Sequence record: PZ445439.1
Length of the DNA stretch: 64,000 bases
From: a phage
Reading direction: 5' to 3' (one strand)
A program made the position numbers and the translations under genes. Shown here piece by piece: positions 286 through 38,604 of this stretch; position 1 is the first letter of the stretch; each line of letters opens with the position of its first letter. The notes under the pieces were generated by a model that was not told the DNA's origin, searched no databases, and was given only the letters and a program-made list of their open reading frames with translations.

Positions 286-472
286 TATCTAAAATGTTGA
301 AGTTAAAAGATACAGCCCAATCTGTACAGACCGTGACCTTTTTAATACAATTATCTTCAACCTCTAGCGGTTCAAACCAATATTCAATAATTTCTTTATG
401 ACCAATATCATCTTTTACTTCGCATTCAAAATGCTGACTCATCATAACATTTTTAAATTCATCAAAAGTCAT
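209..472 (-). CDS. hypothetical small protein, translationally coupled to gene 47
   Basis: Start codon at 472 abuts gene 47 stop (469-471); 87 aa acidic protein. Confidence 0.45.
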   Translation of the reverse strand: MTFDEFKNVMMSQHFECEVKDDIGHKEIIEYWFEPLEVEDNCIKKVTVCTDWAVSFNFNILDNDTPKSLRDMAVSCIKDAYCEVFDI

Positions 473-1488
473 TGTGTTGCCTCTACATATAGCTGATTTG
501 CATATTGAATAAGTGCTTCACGGTCAGAATCAGTGATGTCTGGAATTGCATTAATGTATTCTTCCATCAACGTCTGAAGCGATTGAACTTCAACTTCTTC
601 ACTGTCATCTGACTCGACAGAGTTATCAATTTTTGACACAACTCGTAATGAATGCACAACTTTTTCTAGTTCAGATTCGAACTTCGTCAGATTTTTGTCT
701 ACCTCAGTTACTATAACACGTACTGATAGATTTGTAAAATCTTTATAGTCAATTTTTCCTTTAAATGGATAATGAATTCTACGATGCCAGGTAGTATTGT
801 TTGGAATAAATTCCATTCGTTCTGTTTCTGTATCAAACATCCAGAACCCACGAGGGTCATTCTCGTCACCTGCAGTTAGTGTCCATGGTGTCCCAATATA
901 TCTGACGTTAGCAGCCTCAGAGATAGTATGGAAGTGACCAGACCACACTTCTTTATAAGTCTTAAGGAAATCAGGTTCAAGACCGTGAGATTTCATTCCT
1001 TTATAAAAATAAAATCCATTCAGTTCCCAGTGACCAACACAAAAAGAAGCAGATGAAGTTTTGATGTGCTCAAGAATTTCACCAGTATTTTCTTCACACA
1101 TCCAAGGAATCAAATCAATCAAACACCCGTCAAAATCTACCGTAGTAGGCTTATCATATACTTTAACATTAGGATATTTAGCCAAAAGCTCAGTAGAAGC
1201 ATTTGGATGCATTACATTTTTGTAGTGGAGATCGTGATTTCCTACAATAGTATGTAATGTGATTCCAGCATCATCAAGCATTTGAACTATTTCACGGGCA
1301 AACTCCATAGTTTTATGTGTGATTGCTTTTCGCACATCAAAAATATCACCATATTGAATCCATACAGTAATTCCATTTTTCTTAGAATATTCTATCGCTT
1401 GCTTAATTCCATCAATTTGAATACCGCGAATCCACTCATCATCAGCTTTAACGCCTAAATGCCAATCACCCAAGTTTAGTATTTTCAT
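469..1488 (-). CDS. 47: recombination endonuclease subunit gp47 (Mre11/SbcD-like phosphoesterase)
   Basis: 339 aa; calcineurin-like phosphoesterase motifs GDWHLG, GNHD, GHFH; length and sequence as recalled for T4 gp47. Confidence 0.92.
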   Translation of the reverse strand: MKILNLGDWHLGVKADDEWIRGIQIDGIKQAIEYSKKNGITVWIQYGDIFDVRKAITHKTMEFAREIVQMLDDAGITLHTIVGNHDLHYKNVMHPNASTELLAKYPNVKVYDKPTTVDFDGCLIDLIPWMCEENTGEILEHIKTSSASFCVGHWELNGFYFYKGMKSHGLEPDFLKTYKEVWSGHFHTISEAANVRYIGTPWTLTAGDENDPRGFWMFDTETERMEFIPNNTTWHRRIHYPFKGKIDYKDFTNLSVRVIVTEVDKNLTKFESELEKVVHSLRVVSKIDNSVESDDSEEVEVQSLQTLMEEYINAIPDITDSDREALIQYANQLYVEATQ

Positions 1489-2089
1489 GGTGTCTTTTCC
1501 ATCCTAATTTAGCTGCTTTTGAAACCAGTTCTTTAATTTTTCCTTTTGTCCATTCAGGACCAGGAGGTTCATGACATAACATTTGCTTAACTCCGTTATT
1601 ATACCATTTTTTACCTTTATTATGTGATGAAGCTTTAAATTTATTTGACCTTCCTTTTACATAACCTTCTGGAATATAAGGCAAAAAGGCAGATTTTCCT
1701 GTTAATGGATCATGTGAATGTATATTTCCTTTACAATTATGAGAACCATATAATGGATGATTTTGTCCTTTATTATCTCTTCCAAATGAACCTTTTGGAG
1801 CAGCATATGACATATTAAAGAATAATGGATTTTTAACTGCATCATGCAATCGTTGATAATATAACTCGCATTTAATAGCTTCTTCACGCGTATCAAATTC
1901 AGCTAAAATGCATGAATCAAATAAGTGAGGATTATCTGAAAGCTCTTTATTATAAATTTTCTTATACTTTTTAGATAAAACTGAACCATGATATCCAGCT
2001 AAATGCCTATCTAAAGACGTAGATCCAATATAAAAAGGAGGAAGTTTATCTCCACTATATATTGTTAAATAAGTTATATATTTTTTCAT
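1466..2089 (-). CDS. GIY-YIG family homing endonuclease (seg-like)
   Basis: N-terminal TIY...YIGST module, conserved Arg/His/Glu, DSCILAEF...EAIKCELYY block resembling I-TevI ECSILEE region; C-terminal NKGKKWYNNG-type repeats; overlaps gene 47 start by 23 nt. Confidence 0.7.
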   Translation of the reverse strand: MKKYITYLTIYSGDKLPPFYIGSTSLDRHLAGYHGSVLSKKYKKIYNKELSDNPHLFDSCILAEFDTREEAIKCELYYQRLHDAVKNPLFFNMSYAAPKGSFGRDNKGQNHPLYGSHNCKGNIHSHDPLTGKSAFLPYIPEGYVKGRSNKFKASSHNKGKKWYNNGVKQMLCHEPPGPEWTKGKIKELVSKAAKLGWKRHHENTKLG

Positions 2090-2224
2090 ATATCAAGAAC
2101 CGTCATTGAAATGCAAAATAAAATTATTGAAATAAACCCATCTGGTGTGCTAAAGAACCCAATCCAACATGCTTTAGTGAATAGATAAAATGCAAGAAAA
2201 AGTATCACATATTCAAGAAATATC

Positions 2225-2249
2225 ATTATATCAAACTCCGTATAAAGCT
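2225..2249 (-). promoter_or_regulatory. putative T4 middle-type promoter (MotA-box-like AGCTTTA, 12 nt, TATAAT)
   Basis: minus strand reads AGCTTTA-tacggagtttga-TATAAT upstream of seg-like gene. Confidence 0.3.
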
Positions 2250-2252
2250 AAA

Positions 2253-2265: not shown

Positions 2266-3468
2266 TTATTTTGTAATAATGTCAAACTGTTCTTTAAAGC
2301 AGAAGCTTGAATCTTGATGCTGATACAAAAATTCATAAGCTTTTTCGCGTTCGCGGTCATAAAGAGTTCGGTCAGATGACAGTTCTTTAATACGTTCAAA
2401 TGTTGATTCCATGTCATTTTCATCAAACCAAATGATACCGCTATCATGCGAGGTCAAAGGAGTATTATCAACACGGAATTTTAAATTTTCGCCAGTAGAT
2501 TTCCAAAATACCGGAATTGTTCCACATGCACCAAGCTCGAGATGAGTATATTCTAAAGAACGTTGTAGATATTTTTTATCCAACTTACTCAACTGATAAC
2601 CAAAACCGGATTTACTCATACGTTCAAGCATTTCGCTATTTACATAACGGTCAAGAATTTGCGTTGGCAAATTAGGAGCAATTTTAATTTGGTCTACTTG
2701 ATGAAGACGATAATACTCGTATGGAATTCCTTTTTCTTTAATAGGAATGAACGCTGGAGAACGTTCCAGACCTTCCATAATAGTACTTAGTCCTGCAGGT
2801 TTAAGATGTTTTTCATGAAAATCAAACATCTGATAAAAACCTTTCCATGTAGTCGTACGACCAATCCAACGGTTGATATTCATGTTAATTTCAGAAACAT
2901 CTTTCCAGTAGGTTGACCGAACCTTCGCAATATCCATAGGAGGCTGAAAGTTATATACTGTCGGTGCTTCTTCAATATCATCAAACAGAGAAACTGTTTC
3001 AGGATACCATTCTTTCATCAGAACTTTATTAAAATCACCATTATCAGAATGGCTAAAAATAACATCAGCTCGACGAACAGTTTCTTCTAATCCCAAATTT
3101 CGGCGCAAAGAAAGAGAAGAATGGTCATGTTGATAAACTACAACACGAACAGAAGGTTTAATGTTATCAATAATTTTTTTATAGTTATTAATAGTGTCTT
3201 CTTCAACCGAAGTAGCAGGAACTGAATTGATAATTAGAATATCACAATCATTTACCAGCTTAAGTGTTTTATCATATTCTTTTGCCAATAAAACCGGAAT
3301 TGAAAATGATTTATAATCATGCGCGCAATTACGAGTAAATGATTTATCTTTAGCATAAACCAAAGTTACTTCATGACCATTTTTAATAAACCAATCACGT
3401 TGCTCGAGTGAGAATTTTGTTACACCACAACCTTCAAGACCTCGAGCCATAAAAATACATACTTTCAT
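2266..3468 (-). CDS. a-gt: DNA alpha-glucosyltransferase
   Basis: 400 aa; N-terminus MKVCIFMARGLEGCGVTKF as recalled for T4 alpha-gt; same length as T4 protein. Confidence 0.85.
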   Translation of the reverse strand: MKVCIFMARGLEGCGVTKFSLEQRDWFIKNGHEVTLVYAKDKSFTRNCAHDYKSFSIPVLLAKEYDKTLKLVNDCDILIINSVPATSVEEDTINNYKKIIDNIKPSVRVVVYQHDHSSLSLRRNLGLEETVRRADVIFSHSDNGDFNKVLMKEWYPETVSLFDDIEEAPTVYNFQPPMDIAKVRSTYWKDVSEINMNINRWIGRTTTWKGFYQMFDFHEKHLKPAGLSTIMEGLERSPAFIPIKEKGIPYEYYRLHQVDQIKIAPNLPTQILDRYVNSEMLERMSKSGFGYQLSKLDKKYLQRSLEYTHLELGACGTIPVFWKSTGENLKFRVDNTPLTSHDSGIIWFDENDMESTFERIKELSSDRTLYDREREKAYEFLYQHQDSSFCFKEQFDIITK

Positions 3469-3521
3469 TTAATATCCTCTTTGTTTTGGTTTATTTTACC
3501 AAAAATTTATAAAGCAATATA

Positions 3522-4962: not shown

Positions 4963-5040
4963 TTTCACCTCTTAGCTCAATTCATAGATCTATTATATCA
5001 TAATATTTGAAGATCTATCTTAAAGCATAGAGAATATCAG

Positions 5041-5310
5041 TTATCTAAGTAAACAGTATGCTTGGAATACTTTCTCCATCATCTTTTTAAATTCATGAAT
5101 ATCTATATAATGACTAGTTAGATCAGCATGATATAAAAAGTCTAAAAACTTTTCATGTGTACTAACATATTCACTTTCATTTAATTCAGAAACATGGCTT
5201 TCCCAATATCCAACACCAGTCTTATTTGGGAAAAATGAAATTTTCATGTATTGGTCAACATAGAAAATGCCATAATTTTCAATAGTAATAGAAATATTAA
5301 TAAATTTCAT
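5041..5310 (-). CDS. hypothetical small protein
   Basis: 89 aa ORF in early orientation. Confidence 0.4.
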   Translation of the reverse strand: MKFINISITIENYGIFYVDQYMKISFFPNKTGVGYWESHVSELNESEYVSTHEKFLDFLYHADLTSHYIDIHEFKKMMEKVFQAYCLLR

Positions 5311-7810: not shown

Positions 7811-8281
7811 TTAATCATGTTTCCACACCCCATCGGTATTTGACCAAAGTCGCTGATTATCTGATCCTCGCCACAGCTTTTTAGTCGGAAGATTTTTCTC
7901 ATACTTCCCATCAATAATAACATCAACATATTTAAGCATTTCTAGTTGTTTAATATCTTCAAACTTATATCCTGTCCACAACCAAATGCTTTTATTGGGA
8001 TAAAGATTTTTTACTGTTTGAACAATGCAATGAATAACATCTCGGTTATCAGGATAGAGAGGGTCTCCTCCAGTTATAGTCAATCCTTCTATATAATCAT
8101 TATTCAAACATTCAATTAATTGTTCTAGCGTTTCACCGGTGAATGGAATACCATTTCTAGCATTCCATGTTGATTTATTATAACACCCTTCACATTTATG
8201 CAAACATCCAGTAACAAAAAGAACGGTCCTGCACCCAGGACCATTAACAAAATCACAAGGATAAATTCTATCGTAATTCAT
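7811..8281 (-). CDS. nrdG: anaerobic ribonucleotide reductase activating protein (radical SAM)
   Basis: 156 aa; CxxxCxxC motif CLHKCEGC; adjacent to nrdD. Confidence 0.9.
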   Translation of the reverse strand: MNYDRIYPCDFVNGPGCRTVLFVTGCLHKCEGCYNKSTWNARNGIPFTGETLEQLIECLNNDYIEGLTITGGDPLYPDNRDVIHCIVQTVKNLYPNKSIWLWTGYKFEDIKQLEMLKYVDVIIDGKYEKNLPTKKLWRGSDNQRLWSNTDGVWKHD

Positions 8282-19223: not shown

Positions 19224-20237
19224 TCATTTATAATAACTTCGATGGTTTTCGAGATACACCCTTTCAAGGAAGTCATCCCAGAAACTCATGTCTACTTTTT
19301 GCTGCATACCGTTCTTAGAAGCTTCAATGGATGCTGCTTCTACTCGATCGACCACATCTTCCAAAAACTCTTGAACCGTTTTAAACGGATGCTTACCCAA
19401 CTTCACGTCGAGAATAAATGGAGCATCTTTGAGTGGATAGACCAAGTCGCCAGTTTTGTAAATTTCCAACAGTTGAAGTCCACCACGACAAGCATGACTC
19501 AGGGCTTTCCAGTCAATGCCCTCATTCGCTTCAGCCTTACGAGCGCGTTCACCATATTCAGCATCTAATTTGTTCAGTGACTGCTTAAGCTCAATAAGAG
19601 AAAGCGTTGTCTGATATTTACGACCCAGCACAGTGTAGAACGTCTGTGGGCCTGTTTTCTCATGATTATGGAATACCCATTCACAGAATTCGTTTTCTGG
19701 AAGACGATGCTTAATATCTTCAACCTTGGTACGACGCTGCTTAATAGAACCATCTTCTTGATAGTCAACCCACTGATCAGGGATTTGATTAACTACTTTC
19801 AATACATCACGTAATGCAGCCAAACGAGAACCCTTAACGCCATATTTAGAAGCTTGCTTGCGGACATATCCTAAATAGGATTTCATGTTAGTCGTATAAA
19901 AACGAGAACGGTTGTCTTGAATAAACTTCCATACGTCAGGCAAATCAGATTTAACCACTAGTTCAGGTGGAGTGTGAAGCATATCTAATGCTACAGTTTC
20001 ACCATCTGCTGCTAATTTAAAGAAATACTTAAGACTATACAATTCGTGGTCAATATCATCTTTAGTGTTTTTAGATGATGTGTTGTTAGTGTTTTTACTC
20101 ATGTGCTCTTTAACGTTTCCAATAAGAATATCACGAGCAGGAGGAACAAAAATTTCTTTAAAATCTACATCAGATTCTGGGGTAGAAGTTCCATAAAGAT
20201 GACTACCAAAATAGCTTTTCATTACTGTTTTCATCAT
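19224..20237 (-). CDS. Pol-beta superfamily nucleotidyltransferase
   Basis: GS-x10-DVD motif (YFGSHLYGTSTPESDVDF) near N-terminus; 337 aa. Confidence 0.6.
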   Translation of the reverse strand: MMKTVMKSYFGSHLYGTSTPESDVDFKEIFVPPARDILIGNVKEHMSKNTNNTSSKNTKDDIDHELYSLKYFFKLAADGETVALDMLHTPPELVVKSDLPDVWKFIQDNRSRFYTTNMKSYLGYVRKQASKYGVKGSRLAALRDVLKVVNQIPDQWVDYQEDGSIKQRRTKVEDIKHRLPENEFCEWVFHNHEKTGPQTFYTVLGRKYQTTLSLIELKQSLNKLDAEYGERARKAEANEGIDWKALSHACRGGLQLLEIYKTGDLVYPLKDAPFILDVKLGKHPFKTVQEFLEDVVDRVEAASIEASKNGMQQKVDMSFWDDFLERVYLENHRSYYK

Positions 20238-20695
20238 TCAGCCTTATATTCAATAACAGGACACACTTTAGCTTTACGGGCTTTTAAAAATTCGATAATA
20301 AGAGATTTCTTAGGTTGAATAGGAGGTAAATCTTTATACGCTCTATTAATATTTTCTACGTGTAAAGCATAATCCTTTTTCCATTTATAATTTTTATATT
20401 TTTCACGCAAACGCGCAGGAATAACAAATGAACCGATAATAAGTAAAACAACCAAAAGAGCAAGTATAAATGCCGATGGAAGAAGAGTCCATAAACTACC
20501 GAAAATAAGCCAACGTTGTAGACTTTCTGCACAAATAATTGTTAGCCCTACGAGTATAGCACACCCAAAAATAAAAACAAAAAATGTAGGGATAGCAATA
20601 GACCAAAAGTATGCACATAGTGTCTTAGGCCGTTGCCATTCGTCGTTAAACAATTTGAACAATTTATAGTGCCAAGAGTTTTCATTAATAATCAT
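20234..20695 (-). CDS. membrane protein
   Basis: 153 aa; 3 hydrophobic segments. Confidence 0.45.
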   Translation of the reverse strand: MIINENSWHYKLFKLFNDEWQRPKTLCAYFWSIAIPTFFVFIFGCAILVGLTIICAESLQRWLIFGSLWTLLPSAFILALLVVLLIIGSFVIPARLREKYKNYKWKKDYALHVENINRAYKDLPPIQPKKSLIIEFLKARKAKVCPVIEYKAE

Positions 20696-20697
20696 AA

Positions 20698-21219
20698 TTA
20701 TCCTTTCATTGAAGGTGTAATAGTTGTTAAATACTTAATCATAGCTTCAGCTTCTGATTTTGATAATGAAATTTCTCCATTGTTTTGACGAATAGAAATA
20801 AAATCCGGATGACGGTCACCACCAGCTTTTAAAACACACATATAAGTATCAGCTTCGTCTTCAATATTTGAAATGATTGAAGCAGTTCCACATGAATGTG
20901 GTTTTTGATAAATCAATACGGCTTTTCTTCCACCATTTGACTGTTCATAGGCTTTTAATACATCAAACAAATCAGTTCTTTTATCAATAGCTAAAATGTT
21001 ATTTTCATCTTCAATGTTAAATCCTTCGGATACTTCATAAAGCGTTACCCATAAATCACCAATGTCAATAACAGCATTTACGTTTCCACGGCTTTCAAGA
21101 GTATTACAAATTTTCTTGATTTCGTCATAACTCATTTTAATAATATCATCTCCTTGACTAAGGAAGATGTCATTTTTAAATTCAACACGAATTAAACCAC
21201 TTTCACTTGAAATATACAT
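20698..21219 (-). CDS. hypothetical protein (tandem paralogue A)
   Basis: 173 aa; C-terminus SKSEAEAMIKYLTTITPSM resembles neighbour. Confidence 0.5.
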   Translation of the reverse strand: MYISSESGLIRVEFKNDIFLSQGDDIIKMSYDEIKKICNTLESRGNVNAVIDIGDLWVTLYEVSEGFNIEDENNILAIDKRTDLFDVLKAYEQSNGGRKAVLIYQKPHSCGTASIISNIEDEADTYMCVLKAGGDRHPDFISIRQNNGEISLSKSEAEAMIKYLTTITPSMKG

Positions 21220-21225
21220 ATTTCC

Positions 21226-21771
21226 TCACTTTGAAATCATAGTTGGAATGACAGAATCAAGATAAGTCTTTAGCGCAATAGCTTCATCTTTGGTAAATGT
21301 GACAATATGCGATCGAAAATCATCAGTTTGACGAATAGTTAAGACATCTCCATCTTCATAGCATTTTGATACATTTAAAACAGTTTCATCATTCTGATCG
21401 CAAGCATTAGTAATAATAGCATTGCGATTTTTAAACCATTTTAAAATGTGTTTTCTTTCATTAGAATAATAAAAATATTTAATCTTAGTTATAAAATTAT
21501 CCCAATTGTTAATTGATAAGCATATAGACTCGCTTTCAATATTAAATCCTGGGCATAAAGAATAAAAATGAATTTTATGCTCATCATTAATGCTTACAAT
21601 TTTATCAGTATAAGGATTTTCAATTTGGGTTAAATGAATGATTTCACTAGGCGTAAAATATAGCATATCGTCTTCTTGTGTCAAACGATACATATTATTT
21701 ACTTTTTCTATAGCCAATTCACCAAAAAGTGAACTAACTTCTAATACTAATCGTTTTGCCTCTCCCATCAT
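21226..21771 (-). CDS. hypothetical protein (tandem paralogue B)
   Basis: 181 aa; GFNIESES and TKDEAIALKTYLDSVIPTM match paralogue A. Confidence 0.5.
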   Translation of the reverse strand: MMGEAKRLVLEVSSLFGELAIEKVNNMYRLTQEDDMLYFTPSEIIHLTQIENPYTDKIVSINDEHKIHFYSLCPGFNIESESICLSINNWDNFITKIKYFYYSNERKHILKWFKNRNAIITNACDQNDETVLNVSKCYEDGDVLTIRQTDDFRSHIVTFTKDEAIALKTYLDSVIPTMISK

Positions 21772-24680: not shown

Positions 24681-24850
24681 AATATATCGATTCCCAAAAG
24701 TTTTAAAATGACTCGCTTTTGATTCATAACTGCAACAATTGAATGACCATTTGGGTCTTTTTGACCTGATCCAATTATAAATCCTTTTTGAGCAGAAAGT
24801 TCAATTAAAATGTCGAGTTCACGTAATAATTGATATTTCAAATCATCATT
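24677..24850 (-). CDS. hypothetical small protein (below ORF-track cut-off)
   Basis: 58 codons MNDDLKYQLLRELDIL...; start overlaps upstream stop (ATGA) and stop overlaps downstream start (TTATGA). Confidence 0.4.
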   Translation of the reverse strand, partial: NDDLKYQLLRELDILIELSAQKGFIIGSGQKDPNGHSIVAVMNQKRVILKLLGIDIL

Positions 24851-25056
24851 CATTTCGGTTTTCCTTCTTTAACGAAATCTGGATAAGGATAAAATCCTGA
24901 ATAAAATCCTTCACCTTTATGATTCGTGCACCCTTTATTAGAACAATAGCACCAATAATCAAAATCACAAGCCATTTCATCATTACATAAAGCAAAGACA
25001 ACTGGCCATTTACACTTTTCACAATGGGCATTTTTGAGAATGCTAGTTTGGCTCAT
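24850..25056 (-). CDS. Cys-rich putative zinc-binding protein
   Basis: CEKC...C...C..C...C pattern; ATG at 25056 overlaps upstream stop. Confidence 0.4.
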   Translation of the reverse strand: MSQTSILKNAHCEKCKWPVVFALCNDEMACDFDYWCYCSNKGCTNHKGEGFYSGFYPYPDFVKEGKPK

Positions 25057-35471: not shown

Positions 35472-35485
35472 TGAGGCTAAGAATG

Positions 35486-35959
35486 TTATTTGATTTGTTT
35501 AGCAGACCAAATGCGGTCTTTAATAATTTTTTGGATGTCTTCAACATACTCAAGAGAGTGAACATGCGGGTTATCTTTGAAACTATAAGCACGAGCTAAC
35601 TTTTGGCCTTCAGTTTTGATTACTAAAAGCTCTTTAAGGATAGCTTCATATTTGGAGATAATTCCTTTAACAATATTTTTCTCTTGTGCTACTTTAGGAT
35701 CTGCTTTAGGAGCAGGTTTACCTGAAGCCTTTGCAAAAGCAGCTCCAGTAGCAACTAAACTTTTCCAAGCCATACTAACTGCATTTCCCGTAAATCCTTC
35801 TGCTTTCATATCGCGAGCAAATTGGAATCGCGATTCATCAGAAGCATCTTTATAGGAATATTTACCCGCGGCAATGGCAGCTTTTGCGACAGCTTGAATT
35901 TCAGTGCTAGATGCTTCATTTAACACCGCTTCATTTAAAAATTGAGCATATGATTTCAT
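35486..35959 (-). CDS. capsid-targeted internal protein-like protein (CTS-bearing), 157 aa
   Basis: N-terminus MKSYAQFLNE-AVLNE resembling MKTYQEFIAE CTS; late promoter upstream; flanked by terminator repeats. Confidence 0.6.
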   Translation of the reverse strand: MKSYAQFLNEAVLNEASSTEIQAVAKAAIAAGKYSYKDASDESRFQFARDMKAEGFTGNAVSMAWKSLVATGAAFAKASGKPAPKADPKVAQEKNIVKGIISKYEAILKELLVIKTEGQKLARAYSFKDNPHVHSLEYVEDIQKIIKDRIWSAKQIK

Positions 35960-35995
35960 CTTATTTCCTGTTTTAATTCGTGGTTTTAATATACT

Positions 35996-36003
35996 TATTT
36001 ATA
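35996..36003 (-). promoter_or_regulatory. late promoter TATAAATA
   Basis: minus strand GTATAAATAAG about 35 nt upstream of 35959 start. Confidence 0.45.
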
Positions 36004-36429: not shown

Positions 36430-37095
36430 TTAAAATTTCATTTTTCGACCTTTAAACCATCCTTCTGGAATTGGGTCAGTTTTCTTAATACGTTTAGAAA
36501 CTTTTTCATCTAATGAATGAATCCACATCATACCAAATTGGGAATTCTTTTCACCTTTTTGGTGATTATTTTTAGCATGAATTTCTTTCATTTTATTAAT
36601 AGTTTCAGGAGTATGGGTCTTACCCAAGAAAGATTTAGTATTTAAAAATTTCTCTCTATACTTAGGATTATCCCAAAGCTGTTTAAACCTTTCTGAACCC
36701 ATTTTACGATATTTTTCTTTAAGGTCTGGGTCGTTCTCAAATCTGGTTTTAAAAGCAGCAGCCCCTTTTAAGGAAGCTTCTTTCTTTTTATCCAAATATT
36801 CTTTAGTGTTTAAATGGTCCCAACCACCTTCACCACCTAATTTCAAATTATAAACATCAGGGCGCTTTAAAAACTCTTCAGTCAAAATATTCTTTTCTGA
36901 CTCAAACATAGAGGTTTTATCGTCAAAGAACTCTAATATTTCTTTAGAGAAATTTTCTATACCATACTTGTCTTGGGCTCTTTTTAATAATTTACCAGAA
37001 CCCATATATCCATCATCTAAATTTTCGGTAGAATGAGCGCCTATATAGATTTTATTATTAATTTTATTTGTTATTTTATAAGTGTAATGGAACAT
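36430..37095 (-). CDS. segB: GIY-YIG homing endonuclease SegB
   Basis: 221 aa; YTYKITNKINNKIYIGAHS GIY-YIG module; located inside tRNA cluster as in T4. Confidence 0.8.
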   Translation of the reverse strand: MFHYTYKITNKINNKIYIGAHSTENLDDGYMGSGKLLKRAQDKYGIENFSKEILEFFDDKTSMFESEKNILTEEFLKRPDVYNLKLGGEGGWDHLNTKEYLDKKKEASLKGAAAFKTRFENDPDLKEKYRKMGSERFKQLWDNPKYREKFLNTKSFLGKTHTPETINKMKEIHAKNNHQKGEKNSQFGMMWIHSLDEKVSKRIKKTDPIPEGWFKGRKMKF

Positions 37096-37792: not shown

Positions 37793-38308
37793 TTAAAGCA
37801 AATTAAACATTTTAACGGTCGGCAAAACAATTTCTTTTTCTATATAAGAGTATTTAACACTCTCAACTACACGCAAAAAATCATAATCATAATACTCAGA
37901 AGCACTGCCTAAAATATTAATAAGTCCTTCAAGCACTTTATTACCATTCACAAAGAATAAGTCAAATACACGTTCTTCGTCTTCTTCGGATTTATTACCA
38001 AGGTCAACTTCTATGTCAAAGACCTTTTTAATGAATTCTGGATAAAGTTGTTCTGAGAACAGTCCTTCAACCAAGTATTCATAAATAAAAAGCGATTGCT
38101 CGCTGAACAAGCCATTACCACAATAACGTTCAGCTTTAGTACTAGAATGTCTACTTTTAAACTTCTTTAAAAGATATTGAAATTGTAAGATTTCATGCTC
38201 TTCTACGCCAAACAGTGTTTTAGTTTTATAGTTGTCACCATCATTTTCCCAGGTAGTGACATCAATTACGTAACCCTGTGGAATTGTAGTACCTAAACAA
38301 ATATTCAT
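37793..38308 (-). CDS. hypothetical acidic protein
   Basis: 171 aa ORF upstream of tRNA cluster. Confidence 0.45.
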   Translation of the reverse strand: MNICLGTTIPQGYVIDVTTWENDGDNYKTKTLFGVEEHEILQFQYLLKKFKSRHSSTKAERYCGNGLFSEQSLFIYEYLVEGLFSEQLYPEFIKKVFDIEVDLGNKSEEDEERVFDLFFVNGNKVLEGLINILGSASEYYDYDFLRVVESVKYSYIEKEIVLPTVKMFNLL

Positions 38309-38604
38309 TTGCTCACCATATTAATGTAAGTATATTCAATACATTCAAGACCCAAAGGATTCTTGAAAATATCATATTCAAGAGGACCTTTTTCCGTTTC
38401 AATAAAGAAATCAAAATTTACTGTATTAAATTTACGGTCTTCCTTCACTAATTTAACCTGAGAAGATGAACGGTCAATGTAAACCTTTTCAACTTCAAAA
38501 CATGTTAAAATGCCATAATCATCAATCAAGGCTTTAGCTGCTTCTTGATCATATTTATATCCATTTTCAATGGATGATACTTTAGCATAAAGAATCATTA
38601 TCAC
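38305..38604 (-). CDS. hypothetical protein
   Basis: 99 aa; its first 26 nt are duplicated at 39013..39038. Confidence 0.45.
   Translation of the reverse strand: MIMILYAKVSSIENGYKYDQEAAKALIDDYGILTCFEVEKVYIDRSSSQVKLVKEDRKFNTVNFDFFIETEKGPLEYDIFKNPLGLECIEYTYINMVSK
38576..38601 (-). repeat. 26-bp direct repeat (copy 1, gene start)
   Basis: tactttagcataaagaatcattatca identical at 39013..39038. Confidence 0.85.

Follow-up and report, generated by a model that had tools for sequence, protein, structure and literature searches.

A putative Seg-type GIY-YIG homing endonuclease gene at the start of gene 47 in a T4-like phage

The stretch of phage DNA analysed here (record PZ445439.1; 64,000 nucleotides, hereafter the window) carries, immediately upstream of the recombination gene 47, a 207-amino-acid open reading frame (ORF) that we interpret as a free-standing homing endonuclease gene (HEG) of the Seg type with a GIY-YIG catalytic domain. 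According to this interpretation, to which we assign a probability of roughly three in four, the gene is a selfish cassette of 600 bp located exactly at the gene 47 start and able to home into relatives that lack it. A preliminary description of the same DNA had already proposed a free-standing GIY-YIG homing endonuclease, and the predicted fold, the motifs, the patchy distribution of the gene and the anatomy of its junctions support that proposal. That the HEG is active, where precisely its product recognises and cleaves DNA, and that the silent changes in gene 47 described below confer immunity are inferred from sequence comparison. The HEG is an uncharacterised member of the Seg type that is already present in the databases, and elements of its kind are ordinary in T4-like phages.

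Anatomy of the insertion site

The position and length of the ORF (Table 1) and its overlap of 23 nt with gene 47 (1466..1488), as first described, are confirmed by the ORF listing. There is no intron context: the HEG stands free between 47.1 and 47 and overlaps both. Its ATG overlaps the stop codon of 47.1 in the sequence ATATGA, and in T4 (NC_000866) 47.1 adjoins 47 via an identical ATATGA overlap, which puts the insertion between 47.1 and 47, with a-gt one gene further upstream. Consequently, of the location initially given, between gene 47 and the alpha-glucosyltransferase gene, the gene 47 side stands, and the upstream neighbour has to be replaced by 47.1.

Pairwise alignment of the window with T4 reveals one clean 600-bp indel at 47.1/47, the HEG being absent from T4. 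An ATGAAAA direct repeat is found at each end of the insert, and the stop codon of the HEG, TGA, is located inside GGTGAT, the Gly-Asp codons of the phosphoesterase motif I of gp47. The gp47 protein itself is 99% identical to that of T4 and matches the Pfam Metallophos family. Codons 3-6 of gene 47 read ATT TTA AAT TTA in T4 and in HEG-less phages, which amounts to four silent changes relative to the window; past these changes the window matches T4 without a difference over about 100 nt. With up to 3 mismatches allowed, the T4-type 30-mer does not occur in the window.

Catalytic domain and family assignment

The HEG protein matches PHROG 10820 with an E-value of 1e-94 and phrog_314, described as 'homing endonuclease', with an E-value of 5e-18, and has 170 database homologues, one of which (P0064) has a precomputed match to the Pfam GIY-YIG family PF01541. 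A search of NCBIfam returned no meaningful match. An AlphaFold2 model was built, as was the family alignment, on 37 homologues. Residues 1-90 are modelled with a predicted local distance difference test score (pLDDT) of 90-98 in the order beta, beta, short alpha, alpha, beta, alpha, and the predicted fold is a three-stranded sheet with flanking helices, as in the GIY-YIG superfamily. Foldseek places I-TevI's catalytic domain (1LN0, 1MK0) at ranks 1-3 with a probability of 0.96-1.0.

Tyr33, Gly35, Ser39, Glu75 and Asn92 are invariant in the family alignment, and Tyr11, Tyr20-Ile-Gly22-Ser and Arg68 are nearly so. The stretches T9-I10-Y11 and Y20-I21-G22, at least 90% conserved in the 37 homologues, align with G4-I5-Y6 and Y17-V18-G19 of I-TevI, and in an alignment with the T4 enzymes Glu75 and Asn92 fall on E75 and N90 of I-TevI and on their equivalents in SegB, SegC and SegG. 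The I-TevI-like DSCILAEF block and the C-terminal repeats pointed out in the preliminary description are both present, the former as FDSCILAEF at residues 57-65 and the latter at residues 120-147 and 158-184. As to the catalytic Arg and Glu, whose careful alignment that description had called for, Glu75 (like Asn92) is invariant; the Arg is the soft point: the HEG protein has Arg28, but the Arg27 helix of I-TevI does not align.

Profile comparison with hhalign gave an E-value of 5e-8 and a probability of 95% for SegG, the best of the three T4 Seg proteins compared (SegA, SegD, SegE and SegF were outside this comparison), and an E-value of 1e-4 for SegB, while tblastn at an E-value of 1e-5 reached no T4 protein. 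Homology to Seg proteins at the profile level, with no match at the tblastn level, therefore defines a distinct Seg-like lineage.

RefSeq and PHROG labels would make the protein an HNH endonuclease instead, a description that stands in many records as well as in the PHROG 10820 entry. We reject this identity and give it practically no weight: there is no Pfam HNH match, the fold predicted for the protein is of the GIY-YIG type, as is every top structural match, no HNH structure being among them, the GIY, YIG, Glu and Asn motifs are present, and tblastn detects no similarity to MobB, MobC, MobD or MobE of T4. Orthologues are often annotated 'HNH endonuclease' in GenBank and RefSeq (e.g. NC_054911, NC_054933) and partly 'putative homing endonuclease'; the HNH label appears to propagate from the family description of PHROG 10820.

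The C-terminal half

A resemblance to NUMOD3, limited to the first half of that motif, is seen at residues 103-116 (GRDNKGQNHPLYGSH). The alignment by hhalign of GQNHPLYGSH with the NUMOD3 stretch of I-TevI is weak and covers the first half only (E-value 0.002, probability 14%); Pfam NUMOD3 has no match in the HEG protein, and more distant relatives carry the full domain (PF07460). Two predicted beta-hairpin repeats follow, both ending in P-E-G/x-(Y/W)-x-K-G-(R/K), and an IPEG(Y/W)xKGR ending also closes SegB (local BLASTP, E-value 0.003). A terminal helix, predicted for residues 186-203, extends into the overlap with gene 47. By analogy, this half of the protein presumably binds DNA.

Distribution and selection

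A scan of IMG/VR yielded 28 loci, too few for population statistics; these were obtained by searching the phage collection with queries designed around the junction. A 113-nt query across the empty T4 junction was covered end to end in 465 records, and the HEG was found at 95% nucleotide identity or more in 68. The gene is thus not universal at this site, universal presence having been named in the preliminary description as a point that would speak against its reading; it occurs in about 13% of the junction-bearing records (68 of ~533 of Tequatrovirus type). All 68 are recent isolates, and none is T2, T4, T6 or an RB phage. The presence of the HEG is therefore polymorphic at one precise site among close relatives.

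The Tequatrovirus alleles form two groups, ~99-100% and ~96-97% identical to that of the window, which are separated by 14-19 synonymous and 3-5 non-synonymous differences. The resulting ratio of non-synonymous to synonymous substitution rates (dN/dS) of 0.05-0.07 indicates strong purifying selection on the protein and, together with the PHROG match and the 170 homologues, places the ORF far beyond chance. The copy in Escherichia phage GEP001 (locus L043, 1553-2101) ends prematurely at codon 183, where TGA stands for GGA, and lacks the terminal helix; it may be decaying or may reflect a sequencing error. An apparent partial deletion in KNP1 and KNP5 was rejected as a case of decay, being a run of N in the assembly.

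Linkage of silent changes in gene 47

We compared 2.4 kb of flanking sequence between 5 HEG-carrying and 8 HEG-less Tequatrovirus loci. It contains 309 polymorphic sites, of which just three, positions 9, 15 and 18 of gene 47 (silent changes in codons 3, 5 and 6), are fixed between the two classes. Position 10 also separates the classes except in RB14, a HEG-less phage that has one of the four silent changes. The remaining polymorphisms, from position 45 downstream and 4 nt upstream, are shuffled between carriers and non-carriers. The variant codons 3-6 are found in 67 of the 68 HEG-carrying database records, and a reverse chimeric query, joining the 3' end of the HEG to T4-type codons, matches the record of ERS-1 only. 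The silent changes in codons 3, 5 and 6 are probable markers of the target and the immunity site.

Relatives in other genera of Straboviridae

In several more genera of Straboviridae, the position immediately upstream of gene 47 is taken by a full-length relative of the HEG (50-76% identity). Such relatives occur in a Klebsiella phage (L002), Winklervirus LC53, Roskildevirus FBB1, Biquartavirus L9-6, Mosigvirus AV116, QL01, vB_EcoM_005 and three metagenomic contigs; in sister phages 47.1 adjoins 47. Most of the relatives end in (H/N)-E-N-x and share the overlap with ATGAAAAT of gene 47. QL01 differs from HEG-less relatives at gene 47 positions 9, (10), 12, 15 and 18, after which about 20 nt are identical, a codon pattern that is only suggestive at the background divergence of 9-11% in this region. 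Yersinia phage TG1 carries, upstream of a topoisomerase gene, a paralogue that shares the catalytic domain only and has a NUMOD3 tail, in keeping with a modular enzyme that has its target determined by the C-terminus.

Proposed homing route

The following sequence of events would account for these patterns. In a cell co-infected with a HEG-less relative, the half NUMOD3 motif and the two hairpin repeats of the C-terminal half would bind to naive gene 47 at its 5' end, with the conserved codons of motif I (GGTGATTGGCAT) as the probable anchor. Cleavage by the N-terminal GIY-YIG domain would follow, in or close to the 47.1/47 junction and codons 1-6. The break would be mended by recombination with the HEG-carrying genome as donor, and the repair would copy the HEG together with a very short flank, resulting in localized marker exclusion. 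The carrier would itself be immune, its site being split by the insertion and its codons 3-6 bearing the four silent substitutions.

Alternatively, a genuine Seg-like endonuclease could cut elsewhere, deeper in gene 47 or in 47.1 or a-gt, and the changes in codons 3-6 would be hitch-hiking donor sequence. There is a precedent in SegG, whose cleavage site is remote from segG itself. The changes are at most 18 nt from the insert and would rarely be separated from it by recombination. Variant codons also exist without the HEG: RB14 has one of the four, and a HEG-less Mosigvirus-like locus (L024) has ATA CTA AAC, suggesting a natural source of the variants. However, no flanking site beyond codon 6 is fixed between HEG-carrying and HEG-less loci; a distant target would therefore be identical in carriers and would expose them to self-cleavage. 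Moreover, differences fall on these codon positions in an independent genus as well, and the insertion point at the gene 47 start is conserved across genera. We therefore regard cleavage at a distance as unlikely.

Evidence against homing and the possibility of a remnant

Several observations weigh against an active homing endonuclease at this site. At the protein level, the Pfam GIY-YIG match (PF01541, profile positions 2-74 of 78, E-value 3e-4) scores 21.4 bits, narrowly missing the gathering cutoff of 22.6 bits. Neither the protein nor the 37-sequence family profile retrieved a GIY-YIG structure, I-TevI included, when the PDB was searched by sequence; the link was made by fold comparison only. 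The canonical catalytic Arg is not cleanly alignable, and within the wider family position 28 is occupied by Arg, Lys, Asn or Gln. No named or characterised endonuclease at the 47.1/47 site was found in the literature, and neither a HEG-specific promoter nor a regulatory RNA hairpin was detected. At the DNA level, the four silent changes lie so close to the insert (within 18 nt) that their linkage could reflect proximity or carried-along donor sequence. An empty junction with the variant codons was matched perfectly by a chimeric query in SHFML-26, BCPEco_001, BCPSen_003 and Ec_YwIITB1, and ERS-1 (L034, PP337211) combines the HEG with T4-type codons in a low-quality UNVERIFIED_ORG record.

Some of these points can be qualified. 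Arg28 lies in a short predicted helix (residues 26-30), at a position where close relatives associated with gene 47 carry Arg or Lys. MAFFT leaves the Arg27 helix of I-TevI unaligned to the HEG protein and likewise to SegB, SegC, SegG and I-TevII of T4, of which the three Seg proteins are listed or shown as active; as SegB is experimentally a homing endonuclease with the same unaligned helix, this feature is no argument for inactivity. At the empty sites with variant codons, the HEG could have been lost precisely from between the ATGAAAA repeats, or a short conversion tract could have brought in resistance without the gene. SHFML-26 (L032, 3011-3113) also has a gene annotated 'homing endonuclease' directly downstream of 46.1, where gene 46 starts in T4 and RB14; this is another endonuclease gene in the 46/47 block. 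The record of ERS-1 was not used as evidence, given its UNVERIFIED_ORG status, its many single-base indels and its frameshifted HEG. It has T4-type downstream polymorphisms as well, and the assembly may be chimeric or rich in errors; should the combination be real, ERS-1 would be a carrier with an unprotected site.

Could the ORF be a catalytically dead or domesticated remnant, kept for the gene 47 start embedded in it or for a new role as a DNA-binding regulator or exclusion factor? The ribosome-binding region and ATG of gene 47 do lie within the HEG, and therefore only a precise deletion would be tolerated. The ambiguity of the canonical Arg, the Pfam score below threshold and the unprotected codons next to the HEG of ERS-1 point in the same direction. 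Against this, the dN/dS of 0.05-0.07 holds over the whole ORF and not for its 3' end alone. Glu75, Asn92 and the GIY and YIG tyrosines are invariant across genera, and a role as spacer would not keep catalytic residues. Precise empty sites exist, and the pattern of presence and absence is typical of a mobile gene. We consider a remnant improbable, more so than cleavage at a distance.

Beyond the homing endonuclease proposed above, a more specific scenario, to which we would give slightly less than an even chance, is that of an active, unnamed Seg lineage specialised on the extreme 5' end of gene 47. Such a lineage would have tracked gene 47 through at least six genera of Straboviridae, anchored on the GDWHLG codons and cutting at the start-codon region, with codons 3-6 as the sole determinant of immunity; the stop codon and C-terminal tail of the HEG may then be encoded by the first codons of its target gene. 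If this is true, resistant empty alleles like that of SHFML-26 and the truncated copy of GEP001 would display the cycle of invasion, immunity and decay within one well-sampled genus, and the targeted gene 47 encodes the very nuclease that is thought to resect the breaks used for homing.

Expression and neighbouring features

The features of the locus are collected in Table 1. The start codon of the HEG uses the translational-coupling context that gene 47 uses in T4. A MotA-box-like element overlapping the start of 47.1 is shared with T4; judged by its sequence it is a possible middle promoter, of whose transcript the HEG would be the first complete ORF. Sites found in a scan for sigma-70-type promoters are no commoner than expected by chance, and no late promoter (TATAAATA) occurs near the HEG. 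RNA hairpins that sequester the start site have been described for mobE; RNA folds over the start sites of the HEG and gene 47 are no stabler than those of shuffled sequence (z +0.25 to +1.6). A perfect extended -10 element (TGGTATAAT; 1598-1606, minus strand) lies inside the HEG, 110 nt upstream of the gene 47 ATG and in the codons of the conserved KWYNNG motif. It could be an embedded promoter of gene 47 or a by-product of the coding sequence.

Table 1. Features of the gene 47 to a-gt region; coordinates are positions in the window.
Feature	Coordinates	Strand	Remarks
Probable Seg-like GIY-YIG homing endonuclease gene (HEG), free-standing	1466..2089	-	ATG-initiated ORF, 207 amino acids
GIY-YIG catalytic domain, residues 1 to ~97	1799..2089	-	Tyr11, Tyr20-Ile21-Gly22, Arg28, Tyr33, Glu75, Asn92
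Linker with half NUMOD3-like motif (GQNHPLYGSH), then presumed DNA-binding region and terminal helix	1466..1798	-	
C-terminal repeat 1, residues 120-147, predicted beta-hairpin	1649..1732	-	KGNIHSHDPLTGKSAFLPYIPEGYVKGR; AlphaFold2 model
C-terminal repeat 2, residues 158-184, predicted beta-hairpin	1538..1618	-	KGKKWYNNGVKQMLCHEPPGPEWTKGK; AlphaFold2 model
Left ATGAAAA direct repeat (7 nt), HEG start	2083..2089	-	At the gene 47 start position of T4, overlaps 47.1 stop; T4 alignment
Right ATGAAAA, gene 47 start	1482..1488	-	Read within the HEG frame as His-Glu-Asn; T4 alignment
Gene 47 codons 3-6, ATA CTA AAC TTG	1471..1482	-	Proposed immunity/target determinant; T4 alignment
Gene 47 codons 7-12, GDWHLG, Mre11/SbcD phosphoesterase motif I	1453..1470	-	Conserved across genera, in HEG-carrying and HEG-less loci
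Gene 47 (SbcD/Mre11-like recombination nuclease subunit)	469..1488	-	Presumed target; 339 amino acids, T4 annotation
Gene 47.1, predicted membrane protein	2086..2226	-	Upstream neighbour; 46 amino acids
MotA-box-like TTAGCTTTA, 12 nt, TATAAT	2225..2250	-	Overlaps 47.1 start, shared with T4; pattern match only
a-gt (DNA alpha-glucosyltransferase)	2266..3468	-	Pfam AGT, E-value 4e-237

Homing endonuclease complement of the window

The preliminary description had also claimed a distinct endonuclease complement, and each of its elements is borne out. The segB gene is located in the tRNA cluster (36430..37095, between tRNA-Arg and a tRNA with CAU anticodon) and is 84% identical to T4 SegB. Comparison of the window with T4 shows that nrdD is uninterrupted, the 1035-bp intron of T4 with I-TevII being missing, and, with tblastn searches using the T4 endonucleases, that segC (together with 5.3) and mobD are absent. 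The window departs from T4 by more than was claimed, since mobB and mobC are missing too; in the 64-kb interval T4 has six endonuclease genes and the window two. The mobB gene, 861 bp between a-gt and a-gt.2 in T4, is cleanly absent (window 3460-3484), as is mobC, 601 bp between nrdG and nrdD (window 8261-8281).

At the position of mobD in T4 there is no empty site, and the window (20234-21219) has a 962-bp replacement with two unrelated ORFs, of 153 amino acids (phrog_944, membrane protein) and 173 amino acids (phrog_1502, unknown). The latter resembles by eye the adjacent mobD.1-like ORF (21226..21771) in stretches such as GFNIE.E and IPTM, which suggests tandem paralogues. Small insertions relative to T4 occur at window positions 5036-5295, 24683-25051, 35481-36000 and 37813-38326; ORFs of unknown function are found there at 5041..5310 (phrog_1822), 35486..35959 (phrog_2280) and 37793..38308 (phrog_2290). 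The segment 29281-31300 is rearranged relative to the denV/ipII/ipIII region of T4: an ipIII-like segment precedes a segment matching denV (T4 64946-65393) at 79% identity, and ~665 bp have no T4 match.

Significance

Free-standing homing endonucleases shape the survival of alleles when T4-like phages co-infect a cell, and thereby bear on phage evolution. Marker exclusion around the essential genes 46 and 47 would bias the recombinants that arise in therapeutic phage cocktails. If active, the HEG would add a nuclease acting on DNA with glucosyl-hydroxymethylcytosine. The natural material is unusually good, comprising hundreds of sequenced relatives, occupied, empty and putatively resistant empty sites and a candidate immunity signature of 4 nt. 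The finding challenges no current concept; the GIY-YIG assignment would correct a widespread 'HNH endonuclease' annotation.

Comparison with known systems

Intronless homing is established for SegB, SegF and SegG (PMC2988022; PMC2330249), and the observations on the HEG fit this process. SegG of T4, listed as an active endonuclease (PMC2988022), resembles the HEG protein by profile in the Glu/Asn half of the catalytic domain and in the FG..G.(T/N)HP linker. Its gene is likewise free-standing and immediately upstream of an essential gene of DNA metabolism, segG lying between 59 and 32. However, there is no similarity at the BLAST level, the C-terminal region and the locus differ, and SegG cuts far from its own gene, whereas the evidence for the HEG points to the insertion point.

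SegB, which has been experimentally proven to mediate homing (PMC2330249), shares the YIG...GYxGS...F..EIL...E...N layout without the Arg27 helix of I-TevI (GYxGS is found in SegC too) and the C-terminal IPEG(W/Y)xKGR beta-hairpin motif; phrog_314 is also hit by the SegB of the window. Here again the similarity is at the profile level only. SegB has a full NUMOD3 and targets tRNA-gene DNA, whereas the HEG protein has half a NUMOD3 motif and two hairpin repeats. I-TevI, encoded in the td intron of T4, is more remote: unlike it, the HEG is not intron-encoded, its protein has neither zinc finger nor helix-turn-helix, sequence conservation does not extend to the Arg27-His31 helix, and identity is 16-19%.

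Finally, mobB of T4 is another free-standing homing endonuclease gene flanking the a-gt/47 block, located between a-gt and a-gt.2. It differs from the HEG in its unrelated HNH fold and in the junction it occupies, and the window lacks it; PMC2988022 gives its target as unknown. With mobB flanking the same block in T4, this neighbourhood is a recurrent landing zone for homing endonuclease genes.

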